From IMG/VR virus record IMGVR_UViG_3300023179_000016, positions 32,001-96,000 of that record: a stretch of 64,000 bases of DNA. One strand, written 5' to 3'. The DNA is from a virus. The translations under genes were made by a program, and so were the position numbers. Of this stretch, positions 16,941 to 34,751 are shown piece after piece. Under the pieces are notes generated by a model. The model did no database searches. It saw only the letters and a program-made list of their open reading frames with translations, and was not told where the DNA came from. The stretch's first letter is position 1; every line of letters starts with the position of its first letter.

Positions 16941-17432
16941 TTAGCTAGCGATGAATTTAGCAGCGAGTTCTGGCGGGAGAACAGAGTAATCGATTGTAGT
17001 GTTCATCTTATTTGTCTGAGAAATCTCAGCAGTCCTGTTGTCGATGTGGCCCTGAACCTCAGCGATCTCGCTGGGATCGGTGAGAGTGGAAAGAAGGGCA
17101 CGAAGCGCTTTTAGCTGAGGGTCAGAAGAACCCTTACGAGAACCAGGATTCTTTGCTGCATAAGATACGCCGCCGTTCAAGCGAGTATCTTTGCGGAGCC
17201 AATTTGACTGAAGACCGGAGACATACGCCCGCAGCTCAGAAGCGTTAAAACTCTTATCAAGAGCGATGTTTCCAGCAGAAAAACCTTCTACCAGAATTTG
17301 GTTAACCTGCAACCGCAGTTCACGAGTCATCATCGAGCTGATATTGTCGCCCTCAGATACCGTGATATTGTTCTCAGCCAGAACGTTCATAACTGCTGAA
17401 TAGACTGCTTCTTTTTGAGTTTGCTTAGACAT
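16941..17432 (-). CDS. QKEAV...NWLRKDxRLNGG family protein
   Basis: long identical motifs shared with 25851, 30021 and 31085; AGGAG RBS. Confidence 0.85.
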   Translation of the reverse strand: MSKQTQKEAVYSAVMNVLAENNITVSEGDNISSMMTRELRLQVNQILVEGFSAGNIALDKSFNASELRAYVSGLQSNWLRKDTRLNGGVSYAAKNPGSRKGSSDPQLKALRALLSTLTDPSEIAEVQGHIDNRTAEISQTNKMNTTIDYSVLPPELAAKFIAS

Positions 17433-17914: not shown

Positions 17915-17990
17915 TGGTGGGAGTGGTGGGATTCGAACCCACACTGAACAGGGTTTAAGTCTGTTGTCTCTGCCGTTGGACTACACTCCC
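17915..17990 (-). tRNA. tRNA-Leu(UAA), short variable arm
   Basis: acceptor GGGAGTG/CACTCCC, anticodon loop CTTAAAC, TTCGAAT T-loop, A73, encoded CCA. Confidence 0.85.
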
Positions 17991-17997
17991 GTTTAAA

Positions 17998-18073
17998 TGG
18001 TGGGCGAGGTGGGAATTGAACCCACTACCAAAGGTTTATAAGACCCCTATGCAAACCGGTACACCTCTCGCCC
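17998..18073 (-). tRNA. tRNA-Ile(UAU)
   Basis: acceptor GGGCGAG/CTCGCCC, anticodon loop CTTATAA, TTCAATT T-loop, A73, encoded CCA; A at position 8. Confidence 0.82.
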
Positions 18074-18142
18074 ATACTAGATCTTTTCAGGTGTATGCAA
18101 TCGTCAGGGTCATCTCTTTGGCGTCTTAAATTTACTCCTCAT

Positions 18143-18153
18143 TATATTTTCGG
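18143..18153 (-). promoter_or_regulatory. CCGA-N3-TATA motif upstream of tRNA-Ile/Leu
   Basis: CCGAAAATATA. Confidence 0.6.
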
Positions 18154-18157
18154 AAAA

Positions 18158-18235
18158 TGGCGACCCCGGCAGGGCTCGAACCTGCGACCCACAGCTTAGA
18201 AGGCTGTTGCTCTGATCCTACTGAGCTACGGGGTC
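18158..18235 (-). tRNA. tRNA-Arg(UCU)
   Basis: acceptor GACCCCG/CGGGGTC, stem ACAGC/GCTGT around CTTCTAA, encoded CCA. Confidence 0.93.
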
Positions 18236-23072: not shown

Positions 23073-23103
23073 GGCGTAGCGGTGTCAGCCGCGCGGCTGA
23101 CAC
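23073..23103 (-). repeat. GACACTGCTACGCC box (1 mismatch) fused to a 22-bp palindrome
   Basis: ggcgtagcggtgtc; gtgtcagccgcgcggctgacac at a convergent junction. Confidence 0.7.
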
Positions 23104-24640: not shown

Positions 24641-24849
24641 ATCTTCCTGTCCGCGCACTCGTCGCAGCCTTGAATCTCATTGGAGAACGAGTTGCACTCC
24701 TTGCACGACTCAGCCCAGTATAGGTCCACGATGTTCCCCAAGTCCTCGACCTGCACAGAGCACGCCACCGTCGCATTATTCATCTCGTTGTACGGGACGG
24801 CCTCATTCGACTCAAACTCCACGATGATTCTATACTTGGGCATGATCAC
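24637..24849 (-). CDS. small Cys-containing protein
   Basis: MPKYRIIV...CKEC...CDEC. Confidence 0.6.
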   Translation of the reverse strand: MIMPKYRIIVEFESNEAVPYNEMNNATVACSVQVEDLGNIVDLYWAESCKECNSFSNEIQGCDECADRKI

Positions 24850-25037
24850 TTCACCTTCTTGATGTTGAGAACTTCCTCGTTGAACTCAATATTTTTGTAG
24901 TCGTACTCCACTTCAGACATGGACTTGCGCTTTGAGACCCCGCCGTAGATCTCTGCCGCTCCCCTCTTGGATTTGGCCTTTATGTACCTCACGGAATAGA
25001 TGGTCTGCTTCACTCGGACAGCATACTTCGGCATCAC
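24846..25037 (-). CDS. hypothetical protein
   Basis: MPKYAVRV start similar to neighbour. Confidence 0.6.
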   Translation of the reverse strand: MMPKYAVRVKQTIYSVRYIKAKSKRGAAEIYGGVSKRKSMSEVEYDYKNIEFNEEVLNIKKVK

Positions 25038-25052
25038 TCGACTCTCGCCCCT

Positions 25053-25244
25053 TTATGAGTTGGTCTCTGCGCATGCCGCGATGTGCTGCGCTACGTCCTC
25101 ATCTACGCCCCTCTCTCGCTTCTCGGCCAAGGAGTCTGCGTCGCACCTGCCGCAGGTCTTGACATCGTAACCCTTGAGCCTCAGAAAGAGAGCTTCGCAC
25201 CTCTCGCACGTATGCTTCACGAACGTCATACCCAAGTACTCCAT
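25053..25244 (-). CDS. small zinc-ribbon protein
   Basis: GAGGAGGAG RBS, CERC...CGRC. Confidence 0.65.
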   Translation of the reverse strand: MEYLGMTFVKHTCERCEALFLRLKGYDVKTCGRCDADSLAEKRERGVDEDVAQHIAACAETNS

Positions 25245-25420
25245 ATCACTCCTCCTCGCAAGAGAGCTCAAACGTCTTCTTGTGCTTGACCCGGTCCTTC
25301 TTCAGGGGGTGGACCTTGCTGGGCAATGGTTCCACCCTGGGTCTAATCCTTGGGCGCTTAATCTTCAGGGTGATCTTCTTCATAGAAGACATAGTGCCAC
25401 CTCATCCTTTCGTTATAGGT

Positions 25421-25711
25421 TTACAGCTCGAACTCCCCAACCTTGGGATTCGAACTCGAATTATAGCGGATCCAGGAGCTGCAGGAGTTGCACCTGACAG
25501 TGACGGGGTCGTAGCGATGGACGTACACGTCGGGGGACCCGCAAGCGTAGCAGCTCCTAGAGCAGTAGATGATGTCGATCAGAGCCTCCATAGTGGTCTT
25601 CTCCTCGCTGTGCTTGCCGCAGGAGGTGCAGGTGAAGATGTACGGGTCGCCCACCGTGTACTCGTCGTCCATACCAATATAGACATTGCAGTGGCGGCAG
25701 TAGATCTTCAT
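25421..25711 (-). CDS. double zinc-ribbon protein
   Basis: GAGGAGG RBS before MKIYCRHC; four CxxC pairs. Confidence 0.7.
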   Translation of the reverse strand: MKIYCRHCNVYIGMDDEYTVGDPYIFTCTSCGKHSEEKTTMEALIDIIYCSRSCYACGSPDVYVHRYDPVTVRCNSCSSWIRYNSSSNPKVGEFEL

Positions 25712-25740
25712 AGGTCTAAATCCTCCTCGATTCCAGCGGA

Positions 25741-25751
25741 TATAATCTCGG
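25741..25751 (-). promoter_or_regulatory. CCGA-N3-TATA motif
   Basis: CCGAGATTATA. Confidence 0.7.
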
Positions 25752-25850
25752 GGAAAAGTCGACCGCGCAGAAAAGAGAAGTCCACGCACGTCCCTCATAG
25801 ACACACGTGGACCTCTCTATATCAGCCGGGCTCGCGACCCAACAACCAAC

Positions 25851-26333
25851 TCACTCGCCAGACGTTGCCGTCGGAGCAAACTTGGCAGCGAGCTCCGGGG
25901 GCAGAGCACTGAGGTCGATCGTCGGCTGCTTGGACCGAGCGATCTCGGCGACCCGGGCATCGATGTGGGCCTGGACCTCAGCCCGGTCAGTGACGTCGGT
26001 GAGCGTTCCGAGCAGGGCTCGAAGAGCCTTGAGCTGCGGATCACCAGAACCAGAGCGAGAGCCAGGGTTCTTAGCCACATATGCGACCCCACCGTTCAGC
26101 CGCTTGTCCTTTCGGAGCCAGTTGCTCTGCAGGCCAGAGACATAGGCCTTCAGCTGCTGGTCGGTGAACTCCGTATCGAGCTCGATAGCTCCACCGCGGA
26201 ACCCCTCGAACAGGATCTGGTTCACCATGGCCCGCTCCTCACGGGACATCTCGACTGCACTCGAGAACTCGGTAGTTCCCTTGACGTTGACGACTGCACC
26301 ATAGACTGCTTCTTTCTGACTCATCTTGCTCAT
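25851..26333 (-). CDS. QKEAV...NWLRKDxRLNGG family protein
   Basis: paralogue; GGAGG RBS. Confidence 0.88.
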   Translation of the reverse strand: MSKMSQKEAVYGAVVNVKGTTEFSSAVEMSREERAMVNQILFEGFRGGAIELDTEFTDQQLKAYVSGLQSNWLRKDKRLNGGVAYVAKNPGSRSGSGDPQLKALRALLGTLTDVTDRAEVQAHIDARVAEIARSKQPTIDLSALPPELAAKFAPTATSGE

Positions 26334-26358
26334 AACTAACGTTCCTCCGTTGTTGTTC

Positions 26359-26369
26359 TATAAGATCGG
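26359..26369 (-). promoter_or_regulatory. CCGA-N3-TATA motif
   Basis: CCGATCTTATA. Confidence 0.7.
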
Positions 26370-26534
26370 GATATCGGTCACCACGACCGGTATCTTCACC
26401 TATGGGGTGTTCGGTACTCACTCAAAACTGGCTACTTCCGCGTCTGCTGTGGCTACCTACTGCTTGCCGCCTGCCTCCACTGGGGAGAGCTCCACTCGCG
26501 CTACTCCCTGCTCTCTACATCATTACCACCTAGA

Positions 26535-26545
26535 TATATGTTCGG
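26535..26545 (-). promoter_or_regulatory. CCGA-N3-TATA motif
   Basis: CCGAACATATA; no convincing ORF follows. Confidence 0.6.
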
Positions 26546-26737
26546 GATAATGGGATGTCGTGTAAGTCGCTGATACTATTGGTGGGGAAGGTTGGTGTGG
26601 AAGGGGTGTAACGGTGCCCACCTGAGTCACACTGAGTCTGACCCGACCTGCACGTCGCACTCACCGAGACTCCCCGATACCCGTCCAGACAGCCGATCGG
26701 GCTCGTGAGGTCATAGGCTCGGCTGCACCCGACAGCC

Positions 26738-26751
26738 GGCGTAGCAGTGTC
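26738..26751 (-). repeat. GACACTGCTACGCC box
   Basis: exact copy. Confidence 0.8.
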
Positions 26752-27322
26752 GGCGCGCGCTGAAAAGCAGTGGGTAGGGCAAGCAGCCGCTATTATATAG
26801 CCCGGCCAGGGCCATGTGCTGCCAGATCCCTACCCACGGACGCTTGTTGATCCCTTACTGCCTGAGTCTAGCCGTCGTCAGACAGGTCACCAACCTGTTA
26901 CGACCTCTAGATCGTTTCGGCCTTGGAAAGACTCACGTATCCGGGTACGGTTTTGAGAGCCACCCATCATACATATTCAGCAGGAGACAGAACCGTACAA
27001 GATTCTCCTACCGGTTAGACAATACATCCCGGTACTTCCGTCTAACAAGAGTACCGGATTTACCCCTCACTTTACCCGGACTAGGGACCGGTCACCGATA
27101 AGTGTCCTGGCTAGGACCACCGGTGAGTGGAAAACTGACTTACTTTCTGAGGCAGATGATCGGGAGCAGCGCGCGTGTTTCTGCGCCGAGAAGAAAAGCT
27201 ACGAGCGCATGACAGAAAAGCGTCTAATCCTACCAAGGCGGGCGCCGGGAATTGACCCGCCCACCCAGCGACCGCCCGATAAACCGCTGTTTTTTGAGCC
27301 TAGCTAACCTCCGGGGCGTGGC

Positions 27323-27592
27323 TCATTTCCCCTCCAGCGCGGCGCGGGCAATACTTGGCAATGCACAATCACAGGACTTCCCAAATTGAATGTCGCACCG
27401 TTCATGGTGAATGGTCAGATATTGCTTCAGCGCCTCCCGAAGCCTGGCGTTTTCAGCGCTGACTTCCTCGATTGCGACACGATACCCAGCCAAAAACACT
27501 TCTATGTCAATGTGCATTACAGATGCGTCTTTCTGATAGGCTGGGAATCGCTGCTTTAGATATTCTTCTGCCAGTTTTTCGGCTCTAGTCAT
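27323..27592 (-). CDS. ENARLREAL...ARAALEGK array protein
   Basis: start MTRAEK via ATGA overlap; HHERC...CDC insert. Confidence 0.75.
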   Translation of the reverse strand: MTRAEKLAEEYLKQRFPAYQKDASVMHIDIEVFLAGYRVAIEEVSAENARLREALKQYLTIHHERCDIQFGKSCDCALPSIARAALEGK

Positions 27593-27792
27593 TTCCCCTC
27601 CAGCGCGGCGCGGGCGATCGATGCGCCACAAAGACAACCAGCGGTATAGTCACAACCTTCATCATGGGCGGCAAATCTTTCCAGCGCCTCCCGAAGCCGG
27701 GCGTTCTCGGCTTCCATTTCGGCTCGTCCGGATTCGTAACCCTGTTGCCATCCTGAGCACGTTCCCTTGCATGGGTGATTCAGCTTGTTCAT
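27589..27792 (-). CDS. ENARLREAL array protein
   Basis: HPCKGTCSGWQQGY head; HDEGC...CLC insert. Confidence 0.78.
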   Translation of the reverse strand: MNKLNHPCKGTCSGWQQGYESGRAEMEAENARLREALERFAAHDEGCDYTAGCLCGASIARAALEGK

Positions 27793-28019
27793 TACTTCCC
27801 CTCCAGCGCGGCGCGGGCTTCAATTACTTCCTGTCTAAGTTCATCCCAAGCCTGACCTAGCTCTTCGTCCAGCAGAAGAGCCTCATCCACTTTATTGGTG
27901 ATCTTGCGAAGCGCCTCCCGAAGCCGGGTGTTTTCGGCTAAGAATCGATTCCTGGCCTCTTCAAATCCCCGCAACCACACCAATTCATCCGGACTTCCCG
28001 CCTCAGGTCTTGTGCTCAT
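27792..28019 (-). CDS. ENARLREAL array protein
   Basis: ENTRLREAL...ARAALEGK with a Cys-free insert. Confidence 0.78.
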   Translation of the reverse strand: MSTRPEAGSPDELVWLRGFEEARNRFLAENTRLREALRKITNKVDEALLLDEELGQAWDELRQEVIEARAALEGK

Positions 28020-28233
28020 TTAGTTTCTCCATAACATTGGCAGGGAGCATCTTTTCGTCTTCTAAAAAGACGTAATCGTACCCATCCGCGTGTTTCATCA
28101 GGTCTTCTTTTAACGAGCGAATGTCGGAGCTTATCCACTGTCCTAGAACCTGACCGTCTTCAGTGACACACACACCAACCACGTCCCAACCCGGGCTGGA
28201 CCCAAAGATCGGAAATCCATAAGCCTTCTTCAT
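28003..28233 (-). CDS. hypothetical protein inside the array (no repeat tail)
   Basis: start MKKAYG with GGAGGG RBS supplied by the upstream repeat. Confidence 0.65.
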   Translation of the reverse strand: MKKAYGFPIFGSSPGWDVVGVCVTEDGQVLGQWISSDIRSLKEDLMKHADGYDYVFLEDEKMLPANVMEKLNEHKT

Positions 28234-28565
28234 GCTTCCCTCCCCTCCAGCGCGGCACGGGCTGCACACTGCAGGCACCCCTGGTCGGAATAGCTGCACC
28301 GCTCATCGTGCCCACGGACCATTTCTTTCAGCGCCTCTCGCAGTCGTGCATTCTCAGACCGAAGCATAATTACCTCGTTAAGCCACTGCGGTGGCTCAAT
28401 AATGAGGTAAGACATACCCGCCCTTGTCCCCGGTGGATCGGACAAATGAATTTGTAAAGGCTCTGATGAGGCCAGTACGCAAGCATGGTCCTGAAGCGTG
28501 TTCAGTGAAACTTCTGCACCGCAGCGGGAGCATTTCCCAATTTTGTCGTTTGTAAAAAGGCTCAT
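28230..28565 (-). CDS. ENARLREAL array protein
   Basis: start MSLFTN; CSRC..HAC head; HDERC...CLQC insert. Confidence 0.75.
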   Translation of the reverse strand: MSLFTNDKIGKCSRCGAEVSLNTLQDHACVLASSEPLQIHLSDPPGTRAGMSYLIIEPPQWLNEVIMLRSENARLREALKEMVRGHDERCSYSDQGCLQCAARAALEGREA

Positions 28566-28804
28566 TTCCCCTCCAGCGCGGCGCGGGCGATATTTCCGAG
28601 CGTGCAATCGCAGAATCGAGCAGCGTCCAGCGGTGGGTTATCCCGCGAGGCGCAATCGTGGAAATGCGTGTAAGCGTACTCCTCCAGCGCCTCCCGAAGC
28701 CGGGCATTTTCAGCTTCAAGCTCTTTCATTTTTGTAGTGACTTCTTGGTTATACCGATCGGCAGAATCCAGCATGTCCTTTGTGAGATCCAATTCATCCT
28801 TCAC
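28562..28804 (-). CDS. ENARLREAL array protein (first gene)
   Basis: AGGAG RBS, GTG start; HFHDC...CDC insert. Confidence 0.78.
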   Translation of the reverse strand: MKDELDLTKDMLDSADRYNQEVTTKMKELEAENARLREALEEYAYTHFHDCASRDNPPLDAARFCDCTLGNIARAALEGK

Positions 28805-28993
28805 ACAAACGCTCCTTTCCGAAACTGGGGACTGGCCGCCTTATCCTTTTCCGGAGAGAGTTATGTGTGACACTACTACTCTTCGATGAAGTTTCACGAT
28901 CTTACGCGGCACCGCAGGCACTTCAAGCCTTCTGGGCCATTATATCACACTGTGCGAGATCTGTGGAGCTCTACGTAGGTGAGACTCATGGTA

Positions 28994-29206
28994 TCAACCC
29001 TTGTCTTTGCCGAGGCTGATGGGCAGCAGAGCCATCATCTCGGCGATGACCTGCTCGTCGGTCATCGGAGTGAGCTCGGGATTGGGCGTGAGCTCGGCTG
29101 GCACGTTCGGCCAGGGATACGAGGTCATCTTGAAGGGCTTGCCGGCCGCGACGCCGTACACGGTCTGTGTCTCTGTCTCAGAGTTGTAGCACGAGAGGTA
29201 TCTCAT
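28994..29206 (-). CDS. hypothetical protein
   Basis: AGGAG RBS; CCGATCCTAAA motif variant at 29225-29235. Confidence 0.65.
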   Translation of the reverse strand: MRYLSCYNSETETQTVYGVAAGKPFKMTSYPWPNVPAELTPNPELTPMTDEQVIAEMMALLPISLGKDKG

Positions 29207-29242
29207 ATCTTTCTCCTGTTGAGATTTAGGATCGGGATGGGT

Positions 29243-29404
29243 TCAGAGGTCCTCGACCAGATACTCGCCCTCGATCTCCAGCTCGACTGCGTAGCCCTGC
29301 TCGAGGTACTTATCTCCCACCTCGAGTGCCTGGTCGTAGGAGTCAAACCTGATGCTGGCGAACCTGGAGCACTGACCGATCTCGCGGACGTGGATGGTGT
29401 ACAT
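29243..29404 (-). CDS. 53-aa protein (not in ORF track), paralogue of 18248..18400
   Basis: MYTIHVREIG...DSYDQALEVG; GGAGG RBS. Confidence 0.65.
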   Translation of the reverse strand: MYTIHVREIGQCSRFASIRFDSYDQALEVGDKYLEQGYAVELEIEGEYLVEDL

Positions 29405-29426
29405 TCATATCCTCCATACATGGAAT

Positions 29427-29516
29427 TATATGATCGGGATCGGGTGGGATTCGGTTATATAGTCGGCGTGGCGGTGTCGGTCGGCGAGCAGCCGGGCGGA
29501 GCTTCCTTGCTCCGCC
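29427..29516 (-). promoter_or_regulatory. regulatory cassette: hairpin + box variant + two CCGA-N3-TATA
   Basis: GGCGGAGC-N6-GCTCCGCC 29495-29516; GACACCGCCACGCC 29465-29478; motifs 29456-29466 and 29427-29437. Confidence 0.8.
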
Positions 29517-29528
29517 TGCTCACTCAGG

Positions 29529-29879
29529 TTACTTGGAGTAGGCGACCACACCGTACAGTAGTCCGTTACCGGAACCATCGACTGGTTCGTCGACCATCTT
29601 GTATCCGAAAAGCTCCATGTTGTAGTTGAGTGCGTCGAGCATGTGGTCGATCCACTCGTTGAGTTCATGAGCATCGTCGGGTTTCAAGCCGTCGTCTGCG
29701 TAGTCATAGTGGACGACTATATCGCCCAACTTTATTGAAGGAAGAACTCCGTAGTTAGAGATGTTGGTCGGATCGATCGCTTCGACATACATGCTGCCAG
29801 GCATGTCACACTTGGCCTGGTGCGGAGCAGTTGACTCGAGATTGCTCACCAGTTTCACTACGGTGTTCATGTTAGCCAT
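29529..29879 (-). CDS. hypothetical protein
   Basis: single ORF between two cassettes, GAGG RBS. Confidence 0.7.
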   Translation of the reverse strand: MANMNTVVKLVSNLESTAPHQAKCDMPGSMYVEAIDPTNISNYGVLPSIKLGDIVVHYDYADDGLKPDDAHELNEWIDHMLDALNYNMELFGYKMVDEPVDGSGNGLLYGVVAYSK

Positions 29880-30006
29880 CAGGCAGACCTCTGGGTTATG
29901 AGTTAATTATTTAACCCATCGACAATTATATATAATGTCGGTAATGAGTTTACGGGTGGCGTAGCAGTGTCAGCGAGCAGCTGGGCGGAGCTTCCTTGCT
30001 CCGCCC
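29876..30006 (-). promoter_or_regulatory. regulatory cassette with duplicated leader
   Basis: hairpin 29983-30006, box 29958-29971, CCGACATTATA 29931-29941, leader hairpin 29898-29919. Confidence 0.82.
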
Positions 30007-30020
30007 AACCGCAGGTCAGC

Positions 30021-30488
30021 TCAGGCCTTGAACTTCGCGGCCAGCTCTGCAGGCAGCTGGCTGAAGTCGATGGCGGGCTTCGCGGGCTTGGCGATCTCGG
30101 CACTCCTGAGGTCGATGAAGTGCTGGATCTCAGCCCTGTCGGCCGGGTCAGTCACCGTGCTGAGCAGGGCCTTGAGAGCCTTGATCTGCGGGTCGCCAGA
30201 GCCAGAGCGAGCACCAGGGTTCTTGGTGACCCAGGTAGTCCCGCCGTTGAGTCGCTGGTCCTTGCGGAGCCAGTTGTTCACGAGGCCGACCACGTACTTC
30301 TTGAGCTCCGGCTCAGAGAAGTTGGCCTTGAGGGTGATCTTACCCTCCTTGAACATGGTGACCAGCTCCGAGTGGATCTGGGCCAGCTCAGACTTGCTGG
30401 GCGTGTGAGCTCCGTTAGGAGCGAACTGAGTGCAGAAGCAGCTGACGACATTGAAGACCGCTTCCTTCTGGTTCATTGCTGCGATCAT
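30021..30488 (-). CDS. QKEAV...NWLRKDxRLNGG family protein
   Basis: GGAGG RBS before MIAAMNQKEAV. Confidence 0.85.
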   Translation of the reverse strand: MIAAMNQKEAVFNVVSCFCTQFAPNGAHTPSKSELAQIHSELVTMFKEGKITLKANFSEPELKKYVVGLVNNWLRKDQRLNGGTTWVTKNPGARSGSGDPQIKALKALLSTVTDPADRAEIQHFIDLRSAEIAKPAKPAIDFSQLPAELAAKFKA

Positions 30489-30570
30489 GCGGGTTTCCTC
30501 CGTTGGTTGGTTGTAGGTTCGGGCGCGAGCTGTAAACTCGAGCATCATGCGCTCGACATTTACAATTAGA

Positions 30571-30656
30571 TATAAGATCGGGGGAAGTCGGTATGCGGCC
30601 GGCGTAGCAGTGTCACGGCGCGCGGACCAAAGGGTGGGGTCGTCCATGACCCCACC
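30571..30656 (-). promoter_or_regulatory. regulatory cassette
   Basis: hairpin GGTGGGGTC/GACCCCACC 30633-30656, box 30601-30614, CCGATCTTATA 30571-30581. Confidence 0.8.
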
Positions 30657-30667
30657 GTATCAGCGAC

Positions 30668-30925
30668 TCAACCGGTCAGCAGGTCGTTCCAGTCGACTGG
30701 TACGTAGCACTCGCCGGTCTCGCGGGCGAACTCGGATGGAGTGGGTTCGCGGCCGACTCGCACGTGCTGGTCGAGCTCCTCGATGTAGACGACCGACGGT
30801 TCGGAGTCAGTGACCTCATAGAAGTACTGATCAGCGTCCGCATCCAGCATCTCCCGCTGGATTCCCTCGTGGGTGACGAGGACGGTATAGTCGGTGCACG
30901 GCACAATAGAGATGAGTTTCACCAT
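30668..30925 (-). CDS. hypothetical acidic protein
   Basis: single ORF between cassettes, GGAGG RBS. Confidence 0.7.
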   Translation of the reverse strand: MVKLISIVPCTDYTVLVTHEGIQREMLDADADQYFYEVTDSEPSVVYIEELDQHVRVGREPTPSEFARETGECYVPVDWNDLLTG

Positions 30926-31071
30926 CAGGCAGACCTCCAGGTTATGAGTTAATTATTTAACTCATCATTCACTTTTATATATAATGTCGGTAATAGGACA
31001 CCAGGCGTAGCAGTGTCGGTGGCTCGAGCTACCGAGCCCGCTGCGGGGCGGAGCTTCCGTGCTCCGCCCCG
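30922..31071 (-). promoter_or_regulatory. regulatory cassette with duplicated leader
   Basis: hairpin 31044-31071, box 31004-31017, CCGACATTATA 30980-30990, palindrome 30944-30965; leader near-identical to 29876-29945. Confidence 0.82.
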
Positions 31072-31084
31072 ACCCGCTCTTCGC

Positions 31085-31522
31085 TCAGCGCTTGCCGAAC
31101 TTGGCTGCGATCTCTGCAGGCAGCTTGCTGAAGTCGACCTTGGGTCGGTTCAGCTCGGCGATCCGAGAGTCGATGTGTCGCTGGATCTCAGCTCGATCCG
31201 TCGGGTCGGTGATGGTGCTGAGCAGAGCCCTGAGCGCAGTCAGCTGGGGATCATCGACTCGGGAGGACTTGGGTTGGTGATCGACCCCACCGTTCAGCCG
31301 CTTGTCCTTTCGGAGCCAGTTGTTGAGCAACCCTGAGACATAGTTGCTCAGCTCCTTGTCGGTGTACTCCTTCCTGAGCTCGATGCTCCCGTTCCTGAAC
31401 CCCTCGAACAAGACCTGACGGATGGTTCGGGTCTGCTCAGAAGTCGGCTCGCAGACGCCGACTCCATCGAACCCGGTGATCGCGACCACTGCCTGGTAGA
31501 CTGCTTCCTTCTGGTTCATCAT
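31085..31522 (-). CDS. QKEAV...NWLRKDxRLNGG family protein
   Basis: GAGGAG RBS before MMNQKEAV. Confidence 0.85.
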   Translation of the reverse strand: MMNQKEAVYQAVVAITGFDGVGVCEPTSEQTRTIRQVLFEGFRNGSIELRKEYTDKELSNYVSGLLNNWLRKDKRLNGGVDHQPKSSRVDDPQLTALRALLSTITDPTDRAEIQRHIDSRIAELNRPKVDFSKLPAEIAAKFGKR

Positions 31523-31660
31523 GCGATGCTCCTCATGATCCATTGTAGGATCAGTTGACACATCCATGCGTCGGGTTGATTGATATGTAATGTCAGTACA
31601 ACATCACACATCAACATGTAAGATCAGTATTTAATTAAATACCAATCATTTACATATAGA

Positions 31661-31671
31661 TATAAGATCGG
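31661..31671 (-). promoter_or_regulatory. CCGA-N3-TATA motif
   Basis: CCGATCTTATA; CTGA-N3-TACA variants near 31586 and 31617. Confidence 0.7.
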
Positions 31672-31695
31672 AAATCGTCGGGAAGAGATCATCCG

Positions 31696-31802
31696 AAAAT
31701 AGGGCCCGCCGACCTCGACTTACAAGGGATCCCTAGAGTCGGGACCGGTACACGCTGCGCGAACGCTCTCTACATGCAACTTTTTATAAAATAGGGCCCG
31801 CC
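31696..31802. repeat. 15-bp direct repeat at the strand-divergence point
   Basis: AAAATAGGGCCCGCC at 31696-31710 and 31788-31802. Confidence 0.75.
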
Positions 31803-31868
31803 ACCCTTGCTCCCTAATAGGTACAATTTAACCGGTACCTCTTTTGCCTATTATATAAAAATAAACTC

Positions 31869-33692
31869 ATGAAGACCTATCATTTTAAGAAAGACAACGA
31901 GATACACTCTAGCATACCGAGAATAAAATTAACCGCTCTGCTTCTTCTCCTGAAGATAACGACGATCAAGGACCTAAACCTAGAACACATATGACACGCG
32001 CACTACAAGCCAGCATCGTACGCCTATTGCTCACCCAAGACGGATATATCACTCCCAGCGACCCATCGGACGAGCCATGCACCCACACCGCAGACCTCTT
32101 GCTCCTGCTATATAAGATGGGCCTAGGGAGACTCCGCGCATGAGGCTCCACGACACCAGGGACCTGCTCAAGGTACTCGAGAAGCTCAATATCGCCTCCG
32201 CCAGCGAAAAGATAATGAGCGAGCTCACCGAGCACATGAAGCTGTGGTTTGGCCATTTTGATCAGGCTCACCCGGGCGCATACGCACCTATAGTCGACAA
32301 AAATGAAGAAAACTGAGTTTGACGAGCATATGTATAGGCGCCTGGCTGGCTTCTTGGGCTGCATGGGCATAGAGATAGACGATTCTATGCTCGACCTGAT
32401 AAGGCGACACCACTGGCTCGACATGCGACAGGCGCGGCGCCCGTTCAAGCGCTACGGCGAGGACGACGATCTAGGCGACGAAGACGGCACCCTGTATCTC
32501 GCCGCAGCCGCGAGCGACGCACGGGACATAAAGCCGTGCGGATGCGAGTGGAATATAGTGAGACGTGTTCTCTATAAGGGGCAATGGTGTGTAGGCTGCT
32601 CGATGCACTTGATAGAGTTGCTAGAGATGCTCGGCGTCATCAGGGGTGAGGGAAGCGTCGAGGCCACCGTCATGTCGGCGCAAAAAGATGAGTGCGGCGC
32701 CTGGTAAGACCGTACACGTCAGGCTCAGATGTGAGGGCGAGGAGTCGCTCGTCAGGTTGTTGAGCCGTCTAGAGGTGATACAATTATTAGCTATGCTGTA
32801 CGAGTACGGCTCTTCGAGAAGCATGTCGAGCCGCGCGTACGATGCAGTGATAATTGTCTCTAGGGGTGACGAGGCAGATGAAAATCGATGACGTGCTTAG
32901 ATATATCATGGCTTTTGCGGAGCAGGACCGGTGGAATACCAGGATGAATGGGTTGCCGCAGGATGCAGTGGTGCGCTTGCTCATGAAGCTGAGAGTTGTG
33001 GATGGGGTGGGGGCCCTAAGAAGCGTTGATGGAGAAAGATGCGGGGCGTGCGGATCAAGCAATAGACAAGAAGACAAGTATGTCGCTTTTATGGAGAGTA
33101 AGTAGAAGATAATCTCTTACTTTGTTTTTGTGAAGTTTATAGTGGATTTTGAGAGATCTAACGACATGCCGGTTACCAAGGATTTTCTATGTCTTATAGA
33201 GAAGCTTGGTATATTAAAATTTAAGCAGCTTTACAGTCTCGAGCACTGGTTTTCTGACATAATGATAATAGAGTATGACTAGCAACAGGCAGTTCAGTGA
33301 CTGGTATCAGCACGCGCAGAGATTGGCCAAGAAGATATCGTTTAGAAGATTCATATATCGATTGTTAAAAGTGTAATGAGCGACACAGAAGATAGCGATA
33401 CGATAAGAGACACTAAAAAATTCTTTGACTACCTGTCTTGCGCGTTCGCCAAGAAGATGGTCCTCATAGAGTTTCTGCGCAGATTGATGAAGATGCCATG
33501 AGCCACGTCAGCGATAACAATCTCATAAGGGTAAGGGAATATCAGGTGAAGCGCAGACTTGTCAGATTCATATACAAGATGATAGATAAGCCCATCGCGA
33601 CTAGCATGATCGATGCCCTTATGGAGTCGTTTAATATAAGTCTAAATGAAAACTACGAACTGATAGTGAAAGATATAGACGACATCAGCTAG
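31869..33692 (+). other. operon of about ten overlapping micro-ORFs
   Basis: 31869-31994, 31991-32143, 32140-32316, 32303-32707, 32688-32891, 32878-33105, 33166-33282, 33275-33376, 33376-33501, 33498-33692; mostly overlapping start/stop regions, several ATGA or TAATG. Confidence 0.6.
32303..32707 (+). CDS. hypothetical protein with Cys pairs
   Basis: PCGC...WCVGC; part of the micro-ORF operon. Confidence 0.6.
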   Translation: MKKTEFDEHMYRRLAGFLGCMGIEIDDSMLDLIRRHHWLDMRQARRPFKRYGEDDDLGDEDGTLYLAAAASDARDIKPCGCEWNIVRRVLYKGQWCVGCSMHLIELLEMLGVIRGEGSVEATVMSAQKDECGAW

Positions 33693-34740: not shown

Positions 34741-34751
34741 TATATATTCGG
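34741..34751 (-). promoter_or_regulatory. CCGA-N3-TATA motif
   Basis: CCGAATATATA immediately before ATG 34736. Confidence 0.65.

Follow-up and report, generated by a model that had tools for sequence, protein, structure and literature searches.

Small genes on the minus strand of a 64,000-nucleotide stretch of viral DNA are separated by spacers that repeat one arrangement of elements, which raises the question of what such a repeated spacer does for the gene behind it. The stretch, here called the window, comprises bases 32001-96000 of the IMG/VR virus record IMGVR_UViG_3300023179_000016, a linear sequence of 153,399 bp with an estimated completeness of 91%. In four consecutive spacers, which separate the genes A1, B1, A2, B2 and C in this order on the minus strand, a hairpin is followed by a short box, the motif CCGA-N3-TATA and a ribosome-binding site (RBS). 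This order had been described in an earlier note made from the letters of the window, and it was confirmed in each of the four spacers (29427-29516, 29876-30006, 30571-30656 and 30922-31071; Table 1).

Our analysis of the window and of related phage contigs leads us to an explanation that we hold with moderate confidence. The spacers would be terminator/promoter cassettes of the type known as promoter-early stem-loops (PeSLs), to which an invariant, helically phased box has been added. Each cassette would insulate its gene or gene block, the box would dock a protein conserved in the clade, and the modules would double as passive crossover points. The earlier note had also proposed a PeSL-like module that carries its own terminator and promoter and uses a different set of motifs, and our results support this; it missed the invariance of the box throughout the clade and its helical phasing.

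A box conserved in a clade of phages

The consensus of the box is R-C-Y followed by GACACTGCTACGCC; it is asymmetric and 14-17 nt long. At up to 3 mismatches, 11 matches were found in the window compared to 2.5 expected, and outside this one region the rest of the 153-kb genome is without box copies. While the four modules stood as first described, the confinement of the array to them did not, as further boxes are located at 26738 (exact) and 23073 (1 mismatch). Junctions without a box, consisting of a terminator and a promoter only, exist in the same region, for example at 25741. The three near-identical GC hairpins of the earlier note were recovered at 29495-29516, 29984-30005 and 31047-31068; each has an 8-bp stem and a 6-nt loop, and none is expected in shuffled sequences.

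A search for homologues of A1 identified related contigs of 166-172 kb, one of which carries six boxes, each located after a different hairpin and before a CCGA-type promoter. The box with the promoter within 30 nt was found in 43 IMG/VR stretches, and the box alone in more than 118 among the matches listed. A comparison of 99 distinct copies showed 95-100% invariance at 13 of the 14 box positions, and conservation extends to the preceding R, C and Y. Enlarging the set to 214 distinct copies left 13 of the 14 positions nearly invariant, in contrast to the hairpins upstream, whose sequences vary. Each of five complete relatives (167-177 kb, genome G+C 35-50%, terminal repeats in three) contains 4-7 exact boxes, all on one strand and within one region of 10-20 kb, and the reversed-pattern control gave 0 matches. 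The box is unchanged across phages whose neighbouring proteins share only 35-50% identity. Myxococcus phage Mx1, the closest cultured phage by its tail sheath, has box matches at chance level only, and the box sequence was not found in the literature searched. A variant with 1 mismatch (T for A at position 10) recurs outside the box region in three complete relatives (G001, G002 and G004), at several positions on both strands, and may lie within conserved coding sequence.

Repeats of this kind could be functionless leftovers of a local tandem duplication of an A gene together with its spacer. A1 and A2 are indeed paralogues, and the spacers downstream of them are the most similar pair: from the hairpin through the ATG, the A1-B1 and A2-B2 spacers are 77-93% identical, and their similarity drops to background directly past the start codon. 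The proteins B1 and B2 are unrelated (E=0.85). The two unrelated genes share one promoter-plus-leader and are fused to it precisely at the ATG; this bears out the ~70-nt leader that the earlier note had seen in two modules. However, the spacers (77-93%) are better conserved than the duplicated A genes (~55-75%), and the box has been conserved in other phages (more than 35 contigs), where the genes beside it are unrelated and the hairpins differ. A duplication remnant is extremely improbable in our view. Because the box is invariant in relatives beside unrelated genes and different hairpins, we regard it as a clade-wide functional element and not as debris of the A-gene duplication.

Hairpin, promoter and spacing of the box

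The 3' end of the hairpin directly abuts the box (0 nt) in 41 of 99 copies and is located within 8 nt of it in ~89 of the 99. In a relative with a G+C content of 35%, the hairpins have the classical form of intrinsic terminators, their T-runs ending immediately ahead of the box, and the box would therefore lie outside the terminated RNA. Since there is no T-run at the hairpins of the window, we infer rather than observe that they terminate the upstream transcript.

The position of these T-runs bears on the idea that the box acts in the RNA of read-through transcripts, where it would direct processing, 3'-end formation or antitermination. A hairpin beside a conserved single-stranded box resembles nut-like or processing signals, and the strict strand specificity of the box fits such a role. 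Nevertheless, terminators that end immediately before the box argue against it, as does the phasing with a downstream DNA promoter described below, which is not expected of an RNA element. The region was scanned against Rfam at the gathering score and at E up to 1, and nothing but one sub-threshold small RNA match was obtained; neither a ribozyme nor a known RNA motif emerged. Sequences complementary to the box, as would be carried by the pairing arms of a trans-acting guide RNA or ribozyme, are no commoner than in a reversed control, and this candidate was rejected. A function of the box in RNA is thus quite unlikely.

Downstream of the box, the promoter motif is found within 45 nt in 96 of the 129 non-redundant box copies in clade contigs, compared to 3 of 129 in the equal-length upstream control. 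In the four spacers of the window, CCGA-N3-TATA is located at 29427, 29456, 29931, 30571 and 30980. Its presence in the modules was correctly noted before, but it is not specific to them: the motif also occurs at 34741, 19300, 18865, 18143 and 14151 and further upstream in the genome, and represents a genome-wide class on the minus (early/replication) strand, also outside the G+C-rich island that holds most of the array. No -35 hexamer is present at 16-18 bp from the motif, and the region shows no excess of sigma-70-like sites (11 compared to 9.0 expected). Since -10 elements of the sigma-28 type contain CCGA, the class is plausibly read by a phage protein of 595 aa (genome 147794-149581, outside the window). 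The sole recognisable domain of this protein is a C-terminal FliA/WhiG-type sigma region 2, and no region 4 is present.

Could the box itself be a second promoter, located in tandem with the CCGA one and recognised by a different sigma factor or polymerase? Near-invariance over ~16 nt is typical of the promoters of phage-specific polymerases, and the box begins with bases similar to a -35 hexamer. The distance between these -35-like bases and the TATA element is, however, at least 20 bp and variable, the GG-N10-GC geometry of sigma-54 promoters is not found, and the lack of enrichment of sigma-70-like sites (11 vs 9 expected) does not help this reading either. We consider it highly improbable, although no search for a single-subunit polymerase was made.

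The distance from the end of the box to CCGA falls into clusters at 4-7, 13-17, 22-28 and 35-37 nt. The Rayleigh maximum is located at a period of 10.5-11 bp (z~15), first with 79 and then with 111 non-redundant copies, copies with flanks at least 70% identical having been removed, and 0 of 5000 smoothed-null resamples of the spacing distribution reached the observed value. The spacing classes are not an artefact of the search, since the search pattern accepted any distance from 1 to 30. Additional CCGA repeats were rejected as the source of the classes, as only 20 of 89 spacers have one and these show no period. If the -10 hexamer is assumed to begin at -12, the centre of the box is located at ~ -31, -40, -51 and -61. 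This helical phasing with the promoter, together with the T-run terminators that end before the box, makes a transcription-factor site at the DNA level the best reading: the box is most likely a double-stranded-DNA site for a factor that works with RNA polymerase.

A protein bound at the same place could instead act as a stoperator-like roadblock or insulator, which would stop read-through RNA polymerase just past the hairpin and reinforce hairpins that have no U-tract, any effect on the promoter being secondary. The tight coupling between hairpin and box (0 nt in 41/99 and at most 8 nt in ~89/99 copies) would be explained in this way, as would the asymmetry of the box, its intergenic location and its constant co-orientation with transcription. 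The window hairpins without a T-run and the terminal copy at 23073, which has a hairpin and no promoter, also suit a roadblock. Helical phasing with a downstream promoter is not needed for such a role, however, and the hairpins of the low-GC relative already have good T-runs. Moreover, 43 of 129 copies have a promoter but no simple hairpin of at least 6 bp, as determined by a strict perfect-stem search that was passed by 21% of shuffled controls and was too permissive in GC-rich sequence to tell the rival explanations apart. We consider a roadblock possible but unlikely.

One candidate reader of the box is a protein of 132 aa (genome 138492-138890, outside the window) with a sigma-region-4-like helix-turn-helix. 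All four of the box-bearing complete genomes that were tested encode it at 53-56% conservation; it was not found in Mx1, a phage that has no box either. We tentatively propose, as a bolder and rather doubtful version, that the box is the DNA half-site of a split promoter recognition, in which a phage sigma with only a FliA-type -10-reading domain is complemented by a separate, clade-conserved small DNA-binding protein, possibly the 132-aa protein, that can read the box from four alternative positions, each one helical turn from the next. In this way, upstream recognition would become detachable and portable, travelling with each cassette. If a separate sigma-4-like protein does read the box, promoters would be built here in a new way.

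The mechanism suggested for the cassettes can be outlined as follows. Each cassette would turn the gene, or short block of genes, that follows it into an insulated transcription unit. CCGA-N3-TATA would probably be read by host RNA polymerase together with the phage FliA-type sigma domain, which has no -35-reading region. As double-stranded DNA, the box would dock a sequence-specific protein conserved in the clade, which would contact RNA polymerase from one helical face at ~ -31, -40, -51 or -61, in activation or in repression, and would define a separately regulated subclass of the CCGA-N3-TATA promoters. The identical repeated modules would serve as passive crossover points, at which whole cassettes are duplicated, lost or exchanged between phages.

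Exchange of cassettes and comparison with known systems

The gene content of close relatives differs by whole cassettes. Contig L018 carries four boxes vs two in L022, and L023 and L034 differ by a replaced segment. In alignments of at least 80% identity among closely related contigs, the window's genome being in none of them, 13 of 38 internal homology end-points fall within -60 to +80 nt of a box, compared to 1.7 ± 1.3 expected. None of the 38 lies inside the box itself; they fall in the hairpin or in the promoter/leader. The breakpoints at modules that the earlier note had predicted for relatives are thus found. Cassette maps of 38 loci contain 243 singleton open reading frames (ORFs) and 138 families, and the families recur with different neighbours. 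In four phages, a member of the B2 family (F10) is the first gene after a box, and its neighbours differ in each of them.

These data could also point to a dedicated system of cassette mobility, with the box as the core site of a specific recombinase as in integron attC or Xer-like systems. The box is invariant where the neighbouring proteins are only 35-50% identical, the genes between boxes are highly variable (the 243 singleton ORFs and the families with changing neighbours), homology breaks cluster at the modules, and the G+C content of the array is foreign to the window's genome. However, no tyrosine or serine recombinase (Phage_integrase and Resolvase domains) was found in the 91%-complete genome, 0 of 38 end-points lie inside the box, the box has no inverted-repeat symmetry, and a phased spacing to a promoter is not required of a recombination core. 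Such a system is very unlikely.

Several observations weigh against the explanation of the spacers as PeSL-type cassettes with a protein-docking box. The window's own hairpins are without U-tracts, and none of them is listed as a terminator in the terminator search. About one quarter of the clade copies, including those at 26738 and 23073, have no promoter within 45 nt, showing that the box is not strictly bound to a promoter. Given its tight coupling to the hairpin, the box could just as well be a functional part of the terminator. Descent from a small number of ancestral module types may account for part of the spacing classes. The 132-aa protein is under the Pfam cut-off (20.9 vs 24.1 bits), and nothing ties it to the box. 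Finally, the breakpoints represent only ~6-8 independent events, and intergenic breakpoints are expected for any viable whole-gene indel. Because of these last two points and of the lack of a tyrosine or serine recombinase, we treat the exchange of cassettes as a passive, homology-driven consequence of the repeated modules. Of the recombination module postulated in the earlier note, cassette exchange at the modules is supported, but recombination as its purpose is not.

PeSLs combine a stem-loop with a strong sigma-70-like early promoter (-35, -10 and AT-rich upstream region), and mini-circles are excised between neighbouring units. They were described in the T4-type phage pairs RB49/phi1, PST/T4 and nt-1/KVP40, where crossovers, some of them between the -10 element and the Shine-Dalgarno sequence, were experimentally shown (PMC2839356, PMC4122927). 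The spacers of the window resemble PeSLs as small composite terminator/promoter units between the non-essential small genes of a hyperplastic region, as judged here from sequence; each cassette would likewise be transcriptionally insulated, and indel and replacement junctions between relatives lie in the units. In contrast to PeSLs, the lineage is not T4-type (the nearest cultured phage, Mx1, shares 32% sheath identity), the promoter is CCGA-N3-TATA without a -35 element rather than sigma-70-like, and an extra, nearly invariant box of 14-17 nt with helically phased spacing is located between stem-loop and promoter. By analogy, the cassettes would work like PeSLs without being strict members, as lineage, promoter type and the extra box differ. 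To our knowledge, PeSL-type cassettes have been demonstrated experimentally in T4-like coliphages and vibriophages only. The PeSL-like design of insulated, self-expressing and exchangeable gene units would now extend to an unrelated, uncultured clade of 150-177-kb myoviruses.

The box also resembles other known elements. The stoperators of mycobacteriophage L5 and cluster A are 13-bp asymmetric repressor sites, distributed genome-wide in temperate phages and bound by the immunity repressor, which blocks elongation. Like them, the box is an asymmetric, nearly invariant, multicopy and intergenic element of ~13-14 bp that is co-oriented with transcription. Stoperators are, however, present in dozens and dispersed, whereas here 4-7 copies per genome (six genomes) lie in one region of 8-20 kb, beside promoters and phased with them.

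At class I and class II promoters of CRP, upstream sites are located one helical turn apart, and at the middle promoters of T4 a MotA box at -30 is used with an AsiA-remodelled sigma factor. The latter arrangement is documented in PMC2988021. As in both systems, a specific upstream site at ~ -31, -41, -51 or -61 would replace or supplement the recognition of a -35 element. The MotA box is found at one fixed distance, unlike the four spacing classes described here, and the box is far less degenerate than typical activator sites, its binder being a candidate only. Integrons share with the array the single-gene cassettes, a hairpin-forming element with a conserved short core and very diverse cargo, but the cassettes of the array carry their own promoters, the box is located outside the hairpin, and no integrase is encoded.

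What distinguishes the present system is a box that is invariant clade-wide across genomes of 35-50% G+C and located on one helical face relative to a -10-only promoter. The box could serve as bait in a search for the regulator, and as a marker of the variable accessory-gene region in metagenomic phage contigs.

Gene content, genome setting and neighbouring elements

The features of the array are summarized in Table 1. The promoter motif closest to the box at 26738 is located 190 nt downstream, ahead of gene A3 (25851-26333).

Table 1. Elements of the array, listed in the direction of minus-strand transcription
Feature	Position in window	Strand	Remarks
Gene A1	31085-31567	-	ORF; 160 aa; A family; own CCGA-N3-TATA promoter at 31661-31671, without box
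Module 1 hairpin	31047-31068	-	8-bp stem, 6-nt loop; after A1 stop codon
Module 1 box	31004-31017	-	Exact
Module 1 promoter and shared leader	30926-30990	-	CCGA-N3-TATA at 30980-30990; leader with RBS, to B1 ATG
Gene B1	30668-30925	-	85 aa; no known family
Module 2 hairpin	30633-30656	-	9-bp stem; sequence unlike the other three
Module 2 box	30601-30614	-	Exact
Module 2 promoter motif	30571-30581	-	19 nt past the box
Gene A2	30021-30488	-	155 aa; 50% identical to A1
Module 3 hairpin	29984-30005	-	
Module 3 box	29958-29971	-	Exact
Module 3 promoter and leader	29880-29941	-	Promoter at 29931-29941; leader of module 1, to B2 ATG
Gene B2	29529-29879	-	116 aa; not related to B1; family F10, found after a box in three other phages as well
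Module 4 hairpin	29495-29516	-	
Module 4 box	29465-29478	-	Degenerate, 2 mismatches
Module 4 promoters	29427-29466	-	Two tandem motifs (29456-29466, 29427-29437), ahead of gene C (29243-29404)
Extra box	26738-26751	-	Exact; within a ~900-nt stretch without convincing gene
Last box with hairpin	23073-23099	-	Box at 23073-23086, 1 mismatch; hairpin abutting; no promoter; end of the minus-strand array

The A family comprises proteins of 150-180 aa with a nearly invariant basic central motif. Its members in the window are located at 16941-17432, 25851-26333, 30021-30488 and 31085-31567, and in the box regions of all relatives no other gene is as common, each genome carrying several paralogues. No match to the A-family protein was found in Pfam, PHROG or the PDB sequences. 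The AlphaFold model is confident and all-helical (pLDDT 90.7) and has no convincing structural neighbour (Foldseek E>1; VIA Z ≤5.4) and no DNA-binding match. The A family was considered as the binder of the box, and this was unsupported, as there is no family or fold match and its genes are located before and after boxes equally often. The host-takeover genes that the earlier note assumed in the array were not borne out, as no product has a function assignable by Pfam or PHROG.

The record represents a contractile-tailed phage, apparently a virulent myovirus, with plus-strand tail sheath and baseplate genes from ~35 kb and with genes for ribonucleotide reductase, ligase and three tRNAs upstream. 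In a nucleotide search of cultured phages (INPHARED), no match to this phage was obtained; the tail sheath of Mx1 is 32% identical over 88% of the protein. Naming a host from genome contigs was tried and abandoned: the 8 matches are phage contigs binned into metagenome-assembled genomes (MAGs) of mixed phyla, three of them Bacteroidota, and no host is assignable.

Most of the array lies in an island at 24700-32900 of the window with a G+C content of 52-62%, compared to ~39% for the genome. The island consists of small minus-strand genes without Pfam or PHROG family. In relatives, the box region exceeds the backbone by 4-8 G+C points at most, compared to ~16 points between the array of the window and its genome. 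Conserved flanking genes adjoin the box regions in relatives too, which argues for an orthologous position of the box region and against an assembly chimera. The high-G+C array was either imported from a GC-richer relative, or its early genes are under different compositional selection. As an alternative to import from a relative of higher G+C content, early genes could possibly be tuned to a host of higher G+C content for the time before the phage tRNAs appear. The phage tRNAs Leu-TAA, Ile-TAT and Arg-TCT (17915-18235) read A/U-ending codons. In an A-family tree built for the donor of the island, the base was unresolved, and only the non-island copy at 16941 had clear orthologues. Recent import and selection on early genes can now be examined as the source of the difference of ~16 points.

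Further elements were observed next to the array. The stretch of ~900 nt at 26390-27320 contains no convincing minus-strand gene; in addition to the exact box at 26738, it has a TATAAT-like element at ~26800. It is not conserved in the relatives compared, and no Rfam family was found there above threshold. At 27323-28804, five small genes form a tandem row and share two constant peptide joints, a coiled-coil-like motif and a C-terminal motif; the row is preceded by an extended -10 sigma-70-like site at 28939-28967.

A non-coding element of ~170 nt is located just upstream of the first A-family gene (31690-31870, minus strand). It is present in at least 13 related contigs with 70-88% nucleotide identity, always 550-760 nt ahead of the first box and with an A gene in between. 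The element ends in a hairpin and a T-run and has a weak consensus fold with one covarying pair and no Rfam match; a small RNA is one possible reading, a regulatory region at the start of the array another.

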